64,000 bases of DNA from Candidatus Poribacteria bacterium (GTDB lineage Bacteria > Poribacteria > WGA-4E > PCPOR2b), in assembly GCA_965218095.1 (NCBI GenBank), contig OZ244587.1, positions 5,728,001-5,792,000 on the forward strand, read 5' to 3'. The notes under the pieces are model-generated. The model ran no database searches. It had not been told where the DNA came from and saw nothing but the letters and a program-made list of their open reading frames with translations. Numbering within the stretch: position 1 is the first letter of the stretch; each line of letters begins with the position of its first letter. Shown in pieces: positions 12,252-18,420 of this stretch. The position numbers were made by a program, and so were the translations under genes.

Positions 12252-13071
12252 GGTTCTGTTGACATTTGAGTATAAGGTTGTGGCATAATAGAAGAATGAC
12301 GCCAATAACCTTACCTGATGAACAATGGAATAAGATATACCGGTTTCTTCTAAGCTGTCCCACCATCTATGTTGGCGACGAAGCTGCTCCACGCCGCTTC
12401 GTCGAAGCGGTTCTGTGGGTGACTCGTAGTGGGGCTCAATGGAGACTTCTACCAGACACCTATGGCAAATGGAACACCCGCTACAAGCGGTTTGCTCGAT
12501 GGTGCGACAAAGGTATCTTCACACAGATGCACCACCACTTTGCCTCTGACCCTGATATCGAGTCGCTTATTGTGGACAATACCATCTGCCGCGCTCACCC
12601 GTCTGCGGCGGGCACCTTAAAAAAAACGGTGGCACTGAAAGCCAAGCATTAGGTCGGTCTCGGGGCGGTTTCAGTACAAAAAATCACATCACAGTTGACG
12701 GACTAGGCAATCCCCTAAGAATTCATCTGACACCCGGTCAGAGACATGACATAACTGAGGCGGAAGGGTTGATAATCGGATATAACAGTGAATATGTGAT
12801 TGGAGATAAGGGGTACGATTCGGACGCTTTTATCGCGGTTATTGAGGCGAATGGAGCGATTGCGGTGATACCGCCAAAAAGTCATCGTGTTGACCAAAGA
12901 ACGTATGACAAACACTTATACAAAGAGAGACATCGGGTTGAATGTTTCATTAACAAGATAAAATGGTATCGTCGTATCTTCTCTCGGTTTGAGAAACTAG
13001 CTGTCCGTTATTTTGGATTTCTCAGCTTTGTCTCCACTCTTATATGGCTCCCTTAAAATGTCAACAGAACC
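12252..13071 (+). mobile_element. IS5-family element copy 3 (most intact; likely -1 frameshift at A8 12619-12626)
   Basis: Perfect 16-bp TIRs flanked by TA; orfA and orfB overlap at a poly-A slippery site; near-identical to copy 1 in inverted orientation. Confidence 0.93.
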
Positions 13072-13956: not shown

Positions 13957-14604
13957 TTACGATGCACCCCCAACTTCAAGGCGGAAGAATAGTTTTCCCA
14001 TAATCAACTCATCACCGTGATTCAATGAGGCTTTCTGTCCCTGCACAAGCCGTTTGCCTCGATTGATAAACGTCCCGTTGAGGCTCCCGAGATCTTCGAT
14101 GAAATACCCCCCATTTTCAAAAGTTACCTTCGCGTGACTGCGAGAGATTTTGCTGTCGAGGTTTTCATCCGCGAGGTCAATCTTAGGGAAATGCCTGTTC
14201 TCCGCATCCCGCCGACCCATGCGAATCTCTGGGGAATCAAGCGCGTAGATTTTTCCGACCGGACCGTTTCGCAAGATAACGAGCTTTGCATCCCCATTGG
14301 TTGAGGCGCGGTTGTCTGGAATTGGCACGGGTAGAGGCATCGGTGAAGCGACCGCGTCCGGTACACTCTGTGATGAAATTTGCGTTTCTAGCGCCTGTAC
14401 TGGGAAAGAGAGCGCCGGTAGCAGCGGCGATGGTAATTCTGCTGCTTCCTGTTTTTCTTCGACAACTTCGACGTCAATCACATCCGTATCGGCGGTAACT
14501 TGGTTCCTGAGATCGCTGCCGCAATCGTCGCAAAAATCGAGACCATCTGGATTAGAATATCCACAGACCTTTCCATCGATAATGGCTTGACATATAATTG
14601 GCAT
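13957..14604 (-). CDS. Zinc-ribbon + Pro-rich linker + FHA domain protein
   Basis: N-terminal C...CGYSN....FCDDCG; FHA motifs GR, ISRSHA, DLGSLNGTFIN, GDELIMG; SD ggagg. Confidence 0.9.
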   Translation of the reverse strand: MPIICQAIIDGKVCGYSNPDGLDFCDDCGSDLRNQVTADTDVIDVEVVEEKQEAAELPSPLLPALSFPVQALETQISSQSVPDAVASPMPLPVPIPDNRASTNGDAKLVILRNGPVGKIYALDSPEIRMGRRDAENRHFPKIDLADENLDSKISRSHAKVTFENGGYFIEDLGSLNGTFINRGKRLVQGQKASLNHGDELIMGKLFFRLEVGGAS

Positions 14605-14619
14605 TTTGCCCTCCTGCCT

Positions 14620-14690
14620 TTCTGTTGATCAGGATTAGGGTGAAAGGTTACAATATTCCTATCGTCTAACCTTCACGCCCAATCCCGGAT
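14620..14690. other. Imperfect inverted repeat between the sigma-PafA and FHA genes
   Basis: ggattagggtgaaaggtta ... taaccttcacgcccaatcc. Confidence 0.5.
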
Positions 14691-14756
14691 AATCTATAGC
14701 CCATGTTTCATGAGTGCGTTAGATAACGTTTAAGGAGGGGATGCCGTTTCGATAGT

Positions 14757-16811
14757 TCAGTTTGTTGGTTTGGGCGTCAAGGCAAAGTGGGGCGCTCCCT
14801 GCTTCTGCGCTGCTTGATACACTTCCACTGCTTGTGGAAAATCCTCTGGCGCAAGATCTTCTTCTTCAAATTCCGGTTGCAACGGATCAAGCATGAGAAA
14901 CAGTTTCTGATACGGTTCATAGAGTTGGATATAACTCCAATTGACGCCGCACAGAACTTCCTGTTCATTCGCCAACTTGACGAATCTACCGCGAAATTTG
15001 GCGCGAGTAGTTTCGGGCGGATGGTGCATCGCATACTTAATATCGTCGTCAGTAACGATTCGTTCAACGAGTCCTTCTTTCAGAAGTTTGTGATACAGCC
15101 CAATCTCTGGCTGAATGTCGTGATATTGAAGATCCAGTTCTGCGACTTCATCGGAATCCCACGCTAAGCCTCGACGATTAACCTCCGTATCAATCAGTTT
15201 CTTCTTAATCACCCAATCGATCTCGCGATCCAGTTGCATCGGATCCCTTTCCAGACGGCTCAACACAGATTCCCATTTTGCCATGATCTGATCGGTCATT
15301 GGATCCGATTCGGTCTGATCAAAGTACCGTTTCGCAAGCTCCAGGTATTCTCGCTGCATCCCGATCGCTGAGAGCTGTCTCCCGTTCGCCAATTCAACCT
15401 TTTGGGTACAGGTCGTATCCGCTGAAATCTGCTTGATGGCACGCACCGAGTCGCGTAGAGTCAAACCGTCTCCGAGAAAATTATCCTCTATTATGCGCAC
15501 GACGATCGCCGTCGTCCCGATCTTGAGGTACGTCGCAAATTCGGACATATTGTTGTCACCGGAAGTTACGTGCAACCGTCGATATTTTGTTGCATCCGCA
15601 TAGATTGCATCATCACACAGATTGATGATGCCGCGTACCTGATGGTCCGAAGTGATCTGCTCATGGATATGTTCGGCGCGTTGGGAGAGGGCGTATCCCC
15701 CTCGATCTGTAGGTTTGACTTGACCCGAGCCCGTGAAGATCTGGCGTGTGACCAGAAAGGGAACAAGCTGCAAAGATAGCTGCTCGTCGGTCACATGACT
15801 CGCCATCAGATAGTTTTCGTGGCAGCCATAGGTGCCAGAGCAACCTTTGTAAACGGAGATACGCTGCGTAAATCCATCGGCTCGCATCTTCTTCGCCGCG
15901 GAATCGAACAAACGCTGGAGGATTCGTTCTCCGGCTTTCTCGTGCGTAACCACATCAACGACATTATCGCACTCAGGGGTTGCATATTCAGGGAGGCGCC
16001 CCCGGTCTTGATAGAATCGCGCCCCATTTTCCAGAAACACATCGGGGTACATCCGACCTGAAATAATCTCACGGAAGAGGTACACAATGACATCTTCTCT
16101 CGGTAGAGGTTTTTCTCCCCCGGATTCAACCTGAAAATCATACTCGGACTCAATTCCAAGGATGCGACGCTGCAACGATTTTGGTTTCAAGATTCCTTCT
16201 GACATTTTGTAAATCTCCTCTCTAAGGTATGCCCGCTCAATCTGCAACGGTCCGGGACTGGCGGCAAAGGCGGGTTCTTTCGATAGTTTCTCTTTGACCT
16301 GCTGTTTTGCCTGCTGTAGCCGTCCTGAAACGGTTGATGTTGAGAGATCAAGGGTTGTCGCAATGTTTCGGTACGACCAACCTTCCAGATAGAGCAGAAA
16401 CACCCGTTGGTTGTTAGCAGGGAGCGCCGCCACTGCCTTGACGATAGTATCGGAGAGTTCACGTCCTTCGGCGAAAGCATCTGGTGTGGGCGAACCATCT
16501 GGCACGTCAGCGGCGTCTGAGGCTTCGAGTGATTCGAGCGTCAAACGCCGTTTCCGCAACGAGGCGTGGCACAGGTTGCGCGTAATGCGGTACATCCAGC
16601 CCGCAATTTTCTCTCGATCTTGCAGCGTTGCCAGGTGCTGATAGGCCTGGATAAACGCCTCCTGGACAAGATCTTCTGCCTCTGACAGATTGCCCACTTG
16701 CGACAACGCCAGGTTTAACAAACCCGGCTGATGCTGCTCCATCAAGCGCGCAAAAGCGTTTTGGTCCCCCTGAAGGGTTAGGTTGACTAACATTGCATCG
16801 AGCGATGACAT
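14757..16811 (-). CDS. ECF sigma-70 factor fused to a PafA-like Pup/UBact ligase domain
   Basis: aa 1-175: sigma region 2 (AEDLVQEAFIQAY...GWMYRITRNL) and region 4 (LEGWSYRNIA..LDLSTSTVSGRL). From about aa 213: RRILGIESEY, FLENGARFYQD, PEYATPECD, YGCHENY, PFLVTRQ, LSQRAEH, YRRLHV..GD.NMSE, IDWVIKK, LDLQYHDI, PPETTRA, VNWS. Confidence 0.93.
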   Translation of the reverse strand: MSSLDAMLVNLTLQGDQNAFARLMEQHQPGLLNLALSQVGNLSEAEDLVQEAFIQAYQHLATLQDREKIAGWMYRITRNLCHASLRKRRLTLESLEASDAADVPDGSPTPDAFAEGRELSDTIVKAVAALPANNQRVFLLYLEGWSYRNIATTLDLSTSTVSGRLQQAKQQVKEKLSKEPAFAASPGPLQIERAYLREEIYKMSEGILKPKSLQRRILGIESEYDFQVESGGEKPLPREDVIVYLFREIISGRMYPDVFLENGARFYQDRGRLPEYATPECDNVVDVVTHEKAGERILQRLFDSAAKKMRADGFTQRISVYKGCSGTYGCHENYLMASHVTDEQLSLQLVPFLVTRQIFTGSGQVKPTDRGGYALSQRAEHIHEQITSDHQVRGIINLCDDAIYADATKYRRLHVTSGDNNMSEFATYLKIGTTAIVVRIIEDNFLGDGLTLRDSVRAIKQISADTTCTQKVELANGRQLSAIGMQREYLELAKRYFDQTESDPMTDQIMAKWESVLSRLERDPMQLDREIDWVIKKKLIDTEVNRRGLAWDSDEVAELDLQYHDIQPEIGLYHKLLKEGLVERIVTDDDIKYAMHHPPETTRAKFRGRFVKLANEQEVLCGVNWSYIQLYEPYQKLFLMLDPLQPEFEEEDLAPEDFPQAVEVYQAAQKQGAPHFALTPKPTN

Positions 16812-16844
16812 CGAAAGCCTCTCCTTTCGATCTGTTCACCTTAA

Positions 16845-16879
16845 TAGATGCGAAAATTGAGGAGATTCAATTTTTTTTT
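16845..16879 (-). promoter_or_regulatory. Candidate ECF-type (autoregulatory) promoter
   Basis: Minus strand: A9 tract, TTGAAT-16nt-TCTA (GCATCTA), then SD aaggag before ATG 16811. Confidence 0.5.
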
Positions 16880-16920
16880 GGGAGAGAGGTGATAAGTTGA
16901 ACGGTCCACTCTTACGCCTT

Positions 16921-17675
16921 TCACGTTTGGTTATTCAATTTGCAGTAAAGGGTCTTGCGGCCAATGCCCAACAGTTTGGCCGCTTCAGTCAAGTGTCCGT
17001 CAGATGGATGGCGTGGGCAATTAGTTCCTTGCCGGTTCCATTTTCACCGGTGATTAGAACGCTTGTGCCCTCTGCCTTTTGAAGACGCCGAATGTTCACC
17101 AGGATTTCGTCAAGGGTTTCGCTCTGTCCCACAAAGCCTGCAATCCCCCAACGTTCTGCGCCCCGCTCAGAAATCAGCGAAAGCTGTTCGTCAGCGGTTT
17201 GCAGTACATTTTCTGCACGTTCACGCTTGGCGATTTCCTGTTGGAGTTCTCTGTTTTTGTGGCGAAGCACCTGCGCCAGTCGAGCGTTTTTCAGGTGGGC
17301 CTCGACACGGAGGAGGGCTTCCTTGGTCCGAAAAGGCTTGGTGATGTAATCCACGGCGCCAACTTCAAAACCTTCGATGACACTCTCGGCTTCATCCTTG
17401 GCGGTGATAAAGATAATAGGAGTATCCGCTGTTACGTCATCTTCCCTGAGTTGACGATAGGTTTCAAAGCCGTTCATCCCCGGCATCAGGATATCCAAGA
17501 GGGCGAGGTCTAGTTTCACCTCCGGGGTAATTTTCAGGGCAATCGCTCCACTCGGGACTGCTGATACTTGATACCCTTCAGACTCAAGTGTTTGGCGTAG
17601 AATCTCCAGATTTTCGAGTTGGTCATCAACGATGAGGATTTTTACGTCGGTGGAGTCAATGTGTCTTTGATTCAT
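16921..17675 (-). pseudogene. Sigma54-dependent response regulator with the AAA core deleted
   Basis: Receiver (ILIVDD...DYITKPF), coiled coil and Walker A (GENGTGKELIA), joined out of frame to a Fis-HTH (LTEAAKLLGIGRKTLY) ending at 16921. Confidence 0.8.
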
Positions 17676-17679
17676 GACT

Positions 17680-18420
17680 TTAGCTCTCCCATTGTTGAAT
17701 CTCTGACAGAATCTCTGTAATCCCAGCCATATCATTGCTTTGACTCAAGCGTCGTAGATGTTCCGCGAGCTGTTGACCCACGGCGCTGACTTGAGCAACT
17801 TCGCCGAGATAGTTCTCAAATTCCGTCTGACTGTATAATTCCGCCGCTTGCTTCATGCGCGAGAGCAAGTCTTCCAGGAGTGTGATTGCTGAGAGATCCA
17901 AGGATACCGTATCCAACGACGTTGCTTCCGCATATTCGTATTTGACCTCCAAAAGCGTCGCCAAACACTGATAGATCTCCTCGGCACGGAAGGGTTTAGA
18001 GACAAACGCGTTGAAGCCTGCCGACAGATACCTCTCCCGTTCATGTGCAAAGGTCGAAGCCGAAATCTCGACGATTTTCACGCGCTCATCTTCTTCCTCA
18101 AATTCTTCCCAGATCTGCTGCGCTGCTTCCAAACCATTCATCACGGGCATACGAATGTCTATCAAGGCAATCTCCGGCTGATGTGCACGAAACATCTCCA
18201 CCGCCTGACGCCCATTTTTAGCCAACACTACCTCACAGCCGATGCTCGACAGCATTTCCGCCAAAATATCTCGATTCTCCTGGATGTCGTCGGTGATCAA
18301 GACTTTCACCGAACAGCCTGCTGCCAGGTGAGCGACTGGCGCCACCACCTCTGTTGAAGGCATGTCAACTGCTCCGGTGGCAGGTTCAAGCGGCACAGTG
18401 AAGAAGAAACGAGATCCTTT
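17680..18420 (-). pseudogene. C-terminal remnant of a hybrid histidine kinase (end of HATPase + receiver)
   Basis: KGSRFFFTVPL, then receiver (VLITDD, DIRMPVMNG, FVSKPF); the upstream part is replaced by repeats. Confidence 0.75.

Follow-up and report, generated by a model that had tools for sequence, protein, structure and literature searches.

Sigma factors of the extracytoplasmic function (ECF) group that carry fused extensions form the 'one-component' branch of sigma signalling, and few of the extension types are understood. According to the main texts of the ECF classification and of a later review, the extensions include SnoaL-like domains in ECF41 and ECF56, TPR repeats in ECF42 and a Cys-rich part in ECF238 (PMC7826278, PMC8999054), and C-terminal extensions typically accompany the lack of an anti-sigma factor (PMC7826278). 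The window analysed here, a stretch of 64,000 nucleotides from a Candidatus Poribacteria bacterium (contig OZ244587.1, positions 5,728,001 to 5,792,000), contains a gene in which an ECF sigma factor is fused to a domain with the fold of the Pup ligase PafA. Like the ECF sigma factors with fused extensions described in these main texts, the protein has regions 2 and 4 and, behind them, an extension of more than 50 amino acids, no recognisable anti-sigma gene is adjacent, and an ECF-like promoter lies 5' of its own gene. Unlike the known extensions, this one is an enzyme-derived PafA fold of about 440 amino acids, whose contact with the sigma core is presumed. The best explanation of the gene, held here with evenly balanced confidence, is that it joins an ECF sigma factor to a regulatory extension derived from PafA.

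Like the PafA proteins of C. glutamicum (4B0T/4BJR) and M. tuberculosis, the fused domain has the fold without the Dop loop and has kept the GhExE motif, the catalytic Asp and the residues that correspond to R201 and H241. Unlike them it is fused behind a sigma factor, lies far from Pup and proteasome genes and has a Cys as the equivalent of R207; it also differs by H273L, by N324C with a five-residue deletion, by an altered INTR strand and by a sister clade that appears to be catalytically dead. With Dop it shares a homologous fold and 42-43% identity to the two Dop proteins of the genome, but it is without the Dop loop, scores lower with the Dop model and has a Cys in place of the Dop-essential R227. 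Searches of the literature found no description of a sigma-PafA fusion. The terms Pup, proteasome, ligase and PafA do not occur in the main text of either the 2021 ECF re-classification (PMC7826278) or the 2022 review (PMC8999054), whose supplements were outside the scope and may list rare extension types, and the main text of a 2026 preprint on sigma domain architectures (bioRxiv 10.64898/2026.10.08.757525; supplements likewise outside the scope) contains no such fusion. The fusion is apparently not in print, as a preliminary description made from the sequence of this DNA had supposed, and an ECF sigma factor with a C-terminal extension is in itself of a known kind.

The open reading frame (ORF) is located on the minus strand at 14757-16811, starts with ATG and encodes 684 amino acids without an internal stop (protein P0001, genome G000); all features given below for the fused gene are on the same strand. 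Sigma region 2 (residues 23-89; 16545-16745) matched Sigma70_r2 (PF04542) with 60.1 bits (cut-off 24) as well as solved ECF sigma chains, and region 4 (residues 123-171; 16299-16445) matched Sigma70_r4_2 (PF08281) with 43.4 bits (cut-off 25.7). The cut-offs were also passed with Sigma70_ECF (PF07638; 31.3 bits, cut-off 21.1) and TIGR02937 (92.7 bits, cut-off 42.9). Region 4 is followed by a C-terminal extension of about 510 amino acids. The linker between the sigma part and the PafA fold comprises about 35 amino acids and contains a conserved helix in the AlphaFold2 model (residues 193-208; 16188-16235), which is kept in both clades of fusions and in a sigma-only lineage described below. The PafA-fold (carboxylate-amine ligase) domain (residues ~213-650; 14862-16175) was recognised by Pfam, phmmer and Foldseek. 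It matched Pfam Pup_ligase with 426.5 bits (residues 225-628, E = 1.7e-127) and the NCBIfam PafA model with 427.5 bits (residues 215-649, profile positions 1-448 of 457), and the Dop model gave a lower score of 344.7 bits.

Within this domain lie the GhExE motif (G219-I-E221-S-E223; 16143-16157), which is intact in P0001 and reads S/G-x-Q/R in the second clade of fusions, the sequence NGARFYQD (residues 262-269), and the codons of Asp269 (16005-16007), the equivalent of the catalytic Asp, and of Cys399 (TGT, 15615-15617). The columns of the Dop-loop insertion, which comprises about 40 residues in both Dop paralogues of the genome, are empty in the alignment of the fused domain. An acidic C-terminal tail (residues 651-684; 14760-14861) with a low-confidence helix at 655-671 is longer than that of stand-alone PafA. 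In phmmer searches against solved structures, residues 212-665 aligned with residues 7-480 of C. glutamicum PafA (4b0t), and residues 20-181 with ECF sigma chains. The AlphaFold2 model, calculated from a 71-row alignment, had a mean predicted local distance difference test score of 83.6 and a predicted template modelling (TM) score of 0.68. Foldseek ranked PafA and Dop first (TM by target 0.82-0.90; 4bjr and 4b0r 0.82-0.86; 4bjr_A 0.82 with E = 1.4e-35), followed by ECF sigma chains. The preliminary description had read the gene as one uninterrupted ORF with ECF regions 2 and 4, a full PafA fold and no Dop loop, and these points were confirmed.

Intact fused ORFs in other clusters and indel-free contigs of four sequencing runs argue that the fusion is not an assembly artefact. 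The independent cluster P0002 contains the same 684-residue ORF with 99% identity. A search of a protein collection gave 7998 matches, and the best 120 of these comprised 20 full-length fusion clusters, two truncated proteins with sigma domains and 98 stand-alone Pup_ligase proteins. The full-length fusions fall into clade 1 (14 clusters, 673-684 amino acids, 74-99% identity to P0001) and clade 2 (six clusters, 657-681 amino acids, 46-49% identity). Logan contigs from four runs of three studies showed only substitutions and no indels over 14500-17000, and a single contig spanned 14919-17000 and thereby the domain junction. The run with the best coverage is possibly the source sample, and authenticity is better supported by the other assemblies. 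No RNA run was among the 11 runs listed as containing the sequence. Neither a stop or frameshift between the domains nor a restriction to one assembly, both considered in the preliminary description, was found. The short-read contigs break at 14891-14954, 16021-16063 and 16123-16167, where the word depth reaches up to ~930; these stretches encode the segments closest to stand-alone pafA, namely LCGVNWSYIQLYEP, FLENGARFYQ and the GhExE strand. Collapse of paralogues or strains probably fragments assemblies of the fused gene.

The fusion is rare. In a library of 1.84 billion representatives (50% identity), only P0007 and P0121 covered both modules among the best 150 matches; seven others among these exceeded 600 amino acids without a sigma domain, two of them with TPR or HEAT tails. 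P0235 (868 amino acids) and P0244 (774 amino acids) are Pup_ligase proteins with C-terminal tails of TPR and/or HEAT repeats, so other kinds of PafA-family fusion exist. A query spanning the domain junction detected the fusion in 8 of 176 species genomes of the phylum (named matches: Candidatus Poribacteria), i.e. in 4 of 29 genomes of the family of the window, in 2 of 3, 1 of 1 and 1 of 1 genomes of three further families (f5, f6 and f7), and in none of 142 genomes of all remaining families. The copies in G000, G055, G007 and G005 are intact, and those in G006 and G008 reach contig ends. In G054 the copy is broken into ORFs of 450 and 245 amino acids with about 230 nucleotides between them; in G036 about 33 codons are missing and the frame is shifted. 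Truncated forms also occur in the databases (P0016, P0095, P0271, P0272). A metagenome scan for more fused loci returned 12 loci and no fusion; all were ECF or PafA pieces with 24-40% identity. The only name given to the fused proteins in the sources is 'sigma-70 family RNA polymerase sigma factor'.

The genome consists of one contig of 6.35 Mb and contains five Pup_ligase-family genes according to the profile search. The genes for a proteasome ATPase, Dop, Pup, both subunits (beta and alpha) and PafA are found at 0.30 Mb (locus A), and those for an ATPase, Dop, UBact, beta and alpha subunits and a PafA-like protein at 2.2 Mb (locus B). The occurrence of such operons elsewhere in the genome, for which the preliminary description had suggested a search, was thereby established. 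The fusion is located at 5.74 Mb, remote from both. Genome-wide searches with the profiles Pup_ligase, Proteasome and Pup placed no other such gene inside the window, as had been noted before from the sequence; an mpa-type ATPase was not searched for separately. As the genome has PafA and Dop in each of two full operons, general tagging is already covered. The Pup of this genome ends in QRGGE and, because of its terminal GGE, does not need deamidation. A Pup-type operon (C1:301796-308381; Pup PF05639, 65 bits) and a UBact-type operon (C1:2204997-2212334; UBact PF20513, 65.1 bits) thus coexist in one genome, and an ATPase, Dop, the alpha and beta subunits of the 20S particle and a PafA-like ligase are encoded separately in each.

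The fused domain was 66.5% identical to the PafA of locus A, 42.0% and 43.3% identical to the two Dop proteins and 37.1% identical to the PafA-like protein of locus B. Because of the difference between 66.5% and 37.1%, the domain is classified from its sequence as a paralogue of the Pup-type PafA. The preliminary assignment to the UBact type was not upheld, and the motif NGARFYQD, on which it had relied, is common to Pup-operon PafA. In a ligase tree of 60 rows, both clades of fusions formed one clade with the Pup-operon type of PafA (support 99). Clade 1 grouped with its own family's stand-alone PafA (support 96) and clade 2 fell outside, although a single clade of all fusions was not rejected by the approximately unbiased test (p = 0.366). 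The domain may also have been replaced by recombination with the resident pafA. With TIGR03686 the fused domain reached 427.5 bits and failed the equivalog cut-off of 551.3, and it also failed the Dop model TIGR03688 (344.7 bits, cut-off 492.3). The operon PafA of the genome (C1:307023-308381), 100 bits above the fused domain, is itself below the cut-off of TIGR03686 with 527.4 bits, which indicates that this model under-calls PafA in the phylum.

The conservation of the ligase-like domain was scored against 121 PafA and Dop sequences, of which four are the genome's own paralogues and the other 117 diverse representatives. Forty-six columns were scored, namely 45 with at least 90% conservation and the INTR arginine column (Arg or Lys in 118 of 121), and 12 of these 46 columns made up the catalytic set. 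In nine stand-alone relatives none of 108 catalytic cells and none of 306 other conserved cells was changed. The six clade-2 fusions had changes in 52 of 72 catalytic and 11 of 204 other cells, and the 14 clade-1 fusions in 26 of 168 and 36 of 476, these cells belonging to related sequences and not being independent events. The losses in clade 2 included both Glu residues of GhExE, described as the ATP-binding motif in the part of PMC7947786 used here, the catalytic Asp (D64 in C. glutamicum PafA (CgPafA), D94 in Dop; PMC8599861), and the equivalents of CgPafA R201, CgPafA R207 and Dop H241. R201 of CgPafA makes a salt bridge to Pup's C-terminus (PMC8599861). Clade 2 nevertheless kept 193 of 204 non-catalytic conserved cells, and P0121 still gave 348 bits with Pfam Pup_ligase. 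Judged by these residues, the clade-2 fusions are catalytically dead with the fold retained, and since this sister clade is dead, ligation cannot be the function of the family as a whole.

Clade 1 was less affected. H273L, N324C beside a five-residue deletion, and L438V occurred throughout the clade, and the INTR strand had a clade-wide Thr-to-Leu exchange and an insertion of one residue. Changes beyond the three clade-wide ones were found in 10 of the 14 sequences and included E223K, E275K and H414R, besides D269E in two sequences and loss of R393 in six. In the column of D269, Glu was present in 2 of 14 clade-1 sequences and Pro or Ser in all six of clade 2. P0001 itself differed at 2 of the 12 catalytic columns, H273L and R399C. 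The column equivalent to R207 contained Arg in 105 and Lys in 13 of the 121 references and Arg in 13 of 14 clade-1 fusions, and Cys399 of P0001 was unvaried in the contigs of four runs. The cited part of PMC10465538 describes R207 of CgPafA as the primary substrate-interacting Arg, needed to pupylate authentic protein substrates; the R207A exchange abolished pupylation of FabD and halved that of PanB, while pupylation of free lysine was largely unaffected, and the equivalent R227 of Dop is essential for chemistry. Cys399 had at one time been taken for a dead phosphate-binding site; this interpretation was dropped because, according to the same part of that source, the Arg serves substrate docking in PafA and chemistry only in Dop (PMC10465538). 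Since P0001 keeps the chemistry residues and has Cys399 at the R207 position, its domain is predicted to be still able to activate Pup, yet poor at docking ordinary protein substrates. The 'complete ligase' of the preliminary description is therefore correct for the fold and the documented chemistry residues of P0001, but not for the docking Arg, which is Cys, nor for its relatives, as catalytic columns drift in the close ones and the sister clade is dead.

Selection was estimated from the ratio of nonsynonymous to synonymous substitution rates (dN/dS). In the comparison of G000 with G055, the sigma part had a ratio of 0.148, the two halves of the ligase-like domain had 0.153 and 0.124, and the overall value was 0.150; stand-alone PafA of these genomes had 0.042. 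The sigma parts of the two genomes were 77.9% identical in protein sequence, the ligase-like domains 74.2% and the stand-alone PafA proteins 92.9%, so the fused domain evolves about 3.6 times faster in protein sequence than stand-alone PafA. The dN/dS of 0.15 versus 0.042 indicates that the fused gene is functional with all parts under purifying selection, and that constraint on the ligase-like part is much weaker than on the housekeeping PafA.

A search for shorter proteins revealed a sigma-only family (P0275-P0282) of 203-220 amino acids. Its members are 52-61% identical to the sigma part of the fusions, have the same linker helix and a near-identical promoter and 5' untranslated region, but end soon after the helix and are followed by a single-pass membrane protein of 124 amino acids. 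In the sigma tree this family was sister to the clade-1 fusions (support 98) with clade 2 outside; the simplest history would be that the fusion is older and that the sigma-only lineage lost the domain. The sigma-only genes occur in G049 and G041, and as a remnant in G043. These genomes do not contain the fusion and share their genus with G055 and G054. As the lineage persists in genomes without the fusion, the sigma module can stand alone. The same-strand membrane proteins behind the sigma-only genes comprise 124-129 amino acids (L084:1084-1455 in G049, L085:1082-1468 in G041) and a membrane protein of 337 amino acids comes next. The 124-residue protein, which might have an anti-sigma role, has no Pfam match and only about 20 residues before the membrane span.

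Upstream of the fused gene, 32 nucleotides 5' of the ATG, lies the promoter-like ECF-type element TGAATC-N13-CATCTAT (16844-16869), whose function is presumed. The ~60 nucleotides 5' of the start, with this element or TAAATC-N13-CGTCTAT and a ribosome-binding site, were near-identical between clade-1 fusions and sigma-only genes, and a similar element was present in G007. A simple scan of the minus strand upstream of the fused gene detected no sigma-70-type promoter site. The element looks like an autoregulated ECF promoter. A regulon was sought by scanning the whole genome for TGAATC-N13-CATCTAT as patterns and with block scores. The degenerate pattern gave 22 matches and was not enriched over the ~27 expected by a hand estimate for uniform composition without shuffling. 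One match at 299230-299256 of the contig, 5' of a string of genes leading into the Pup operon, was discarded as a chance hit, as it was not conserved in front of the orthologous gene in the loci compared in the correct orientation, those of G055, G036, G056, G041 and G037. No link between the element and the proteasome operons was seen in the promoter-motif scans. The couplings put forward in the preliminary description, namely sensing of Pup, tagging of itself or of RNA polymerase, and a proteostasis regulon, are hypothetical.

As an explanation of these results, P0001 is best regarded as an ECF sigma factor whose C-terminal extension is a duplicated, fast-evolving copy of the Pup-operon PafA of the genome. 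The sigma part would work as an ordinary, probably autoregulated ECF sigma factor that binds core RNA polymerase and initiates at specific promoters, for which the conserved ECF-like element 5' of the gene is indirect evidence. The PafA-derived domain would serve as a built-in sensor or gating module in place of a separate anti-sigma factor, in the manner of the fused extensions of other ECF groups. It would act by binding something and not by tagging many proteins, the candidate ligands being, in this order, Pup or a pupylated protein, and a nucleotide. That the domain gates the sigma factor, what it binds and which regulon is controlled are our inferences. This fused regulatory extension is preferred because ligation is not family-wide, the domain is under selection, the sigma factor is viable alone and no anti-sigma gene lies nearby. 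Several observations weigh against it. Contact of the domain with the sigma part, gating of that part and any ligand are hypothetical, and the AlphaFold2 output gives no contacts; a complex prediction for residues 205-684 (with alignment) and the Pup of the genome gave a score of 0.00, which in this run without controls carries no weight either way. Since the R201 equivalent (R393) is lost in 6 of 14 clade-1 and 6 of 6 clade-2 sequences, the specific assumption of canonical docking of Pup loses weight. The gene is dispensable, as it is patchy and broken in two of eight copies, and the relatedness of the sequences behind the catalytic cell counts must be kept in mind. P0001 keeps all chemistry residues of documented role, i.e. 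E221 and E223 of GhExE, Asp269, Arg393 (CgPafA R201) and His414 (Dop H241), and also E275, E280, H331, E332 and R412. In P0003, P0004, P0007 and P0009 of clade 1, H273 is the only position of the catalytic set that is changed. Catalytic roles for H273, E275, E280, H331, E332 and R412 are presumed from conservation and general background on these enzymes. With regard to these residues, catalysis in clade 1 is possible.

The ten retained residues of P0001, six of which occupy columns invariant in all 14 clade-1 sequences, would fit an active Pup-activating ligase of narrowed specificity in P0001 or clade 1, which pupylates its own sigma factor or an adjacent protein on RNA polymerase and couples turnover of the sigma factor or of transcription complexes to the proteasome. 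Such an enzyme with a tethered target would agree with the purifying selection on the domain, with a Pup ending in GGE that makes deamidation unnecessary, and, as far as the cited parts of these papers go, with the unimpaired Pup activation and free-lysine pupylation of CgPafA after loss of R207 (PMC10465538) and the self-pupylation of PafA (PMC4783102, PMC10465538). It is a serious rival but nevertheless rather unlikely, as GhExE, the catalytic Asp and the counterparts of R201, R207 and H241 are gone from the sister clade, so that ligation is not the conserved function; moreover, 10 of 14 clade-1 sequences have further changes such as E223K, D269E, E275K and H414R, the whole clade shares H273L, N324C with its deletion and the altered INTR strand, and no Pup gene is nearby. 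A more specific form, in which the sigma-tethered domain still activates Pup and tags the sigma factor or polymerase-bound proteins in cis or at the promoter, the dead sister clade being a later switch to pure sensing of Pup or the pupylome, appears quite improbable. The low frequency of the fusion (8 of 176 genomes), the interrupted copy in G054, the shortened and frameshifted one in G036, the four truncated database forms, the sigma-only lineage and the faster evolution relative to stand-alone PafA would all be expected if the domain were a relic without function, left from an accidental duplication and fusion and now being lost, with only the sigma part being of importance. This is very improbable in view of a dN/dS of the domain (0.12-0.15) equal to that of the sigma part, of open, full-length domains in 20 clusters and in G055, G007 and G005 across clades that are about 50% identical, and of the 193 of 204 non-catalytic cells kept in clade 2, which point to selective retention of the fold. 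If the sigma module were merely a delivery handle that brings a Pup- or protein-binding PafA-like domain to RNA polymerase, where pupylated proteins or the proteasome ATPase, for instance, could be recruited, and had no promoter-specific role, the joint conservation of both modules and of the non-catalytic PafA/Dop columns in both clades would be accounted for. The ECF-like promoter element conserved upstream of fusions and sigma-only relatives, the matches of regions 2 and 4 to DNA-binding sigma profiles above the cut-offs and the persistence of the sigma-only lineage without the domain make such a handle highly improbable.

Under the preferred reading of a regulatory extension, the Pup-ligase-derived domain would be the first direct structural link of the bacterial ubiquitin-like tagging machinery to the transcription apparatus. 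If the sigma-tethered ligase existed, initiation by this sigma factor would be wired directly to proteasomal degradation. The natural series from a near-intact ligase through a dead pseudo-ligase to the complete absence of the domain could show how an enzyme becomes a regulatory module, within the limits of a small, patchy family of an uncultured phylum, for which any ligand and regulon are hypothetical.

The fused gene is flanked downstream by genes for an FHA and zinc-ribbon protein and for PanC, and upstream by two receiver-domain genes. None of these four flanking genes matched an anti-sigma Pfam family. The neighbours vary between genomes, and the loci compared had no conserved partner gene. 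The NtrC-type response regulator directly upstream (16921-17735, minus strand) is a remnant, in which only profile positions 1-44 of the sigma-54 AAA domain stand between the receiver and a stop; its C-terminal HTH tail, EAAKLLGIGRKTLYCKLNNQT, follows in another frame, and the arrangement points to an internal deletion. An IS4/IS5-family transposase gene split into two ORFs (a DUF4096 part and a DDE part) is located on the plus strand at 12266-13056, about 1.7 kb from the fused gene, and a transposase-like ORF was also seen, by eye and not by a profile, near the fusion copy of G055. In G007, 4 kb from the fusion, a second ECF sigma factor of 700 amino acids is encoded (L064:12420-14522), in which the ~500 residues after region 4 match no Pfam family.

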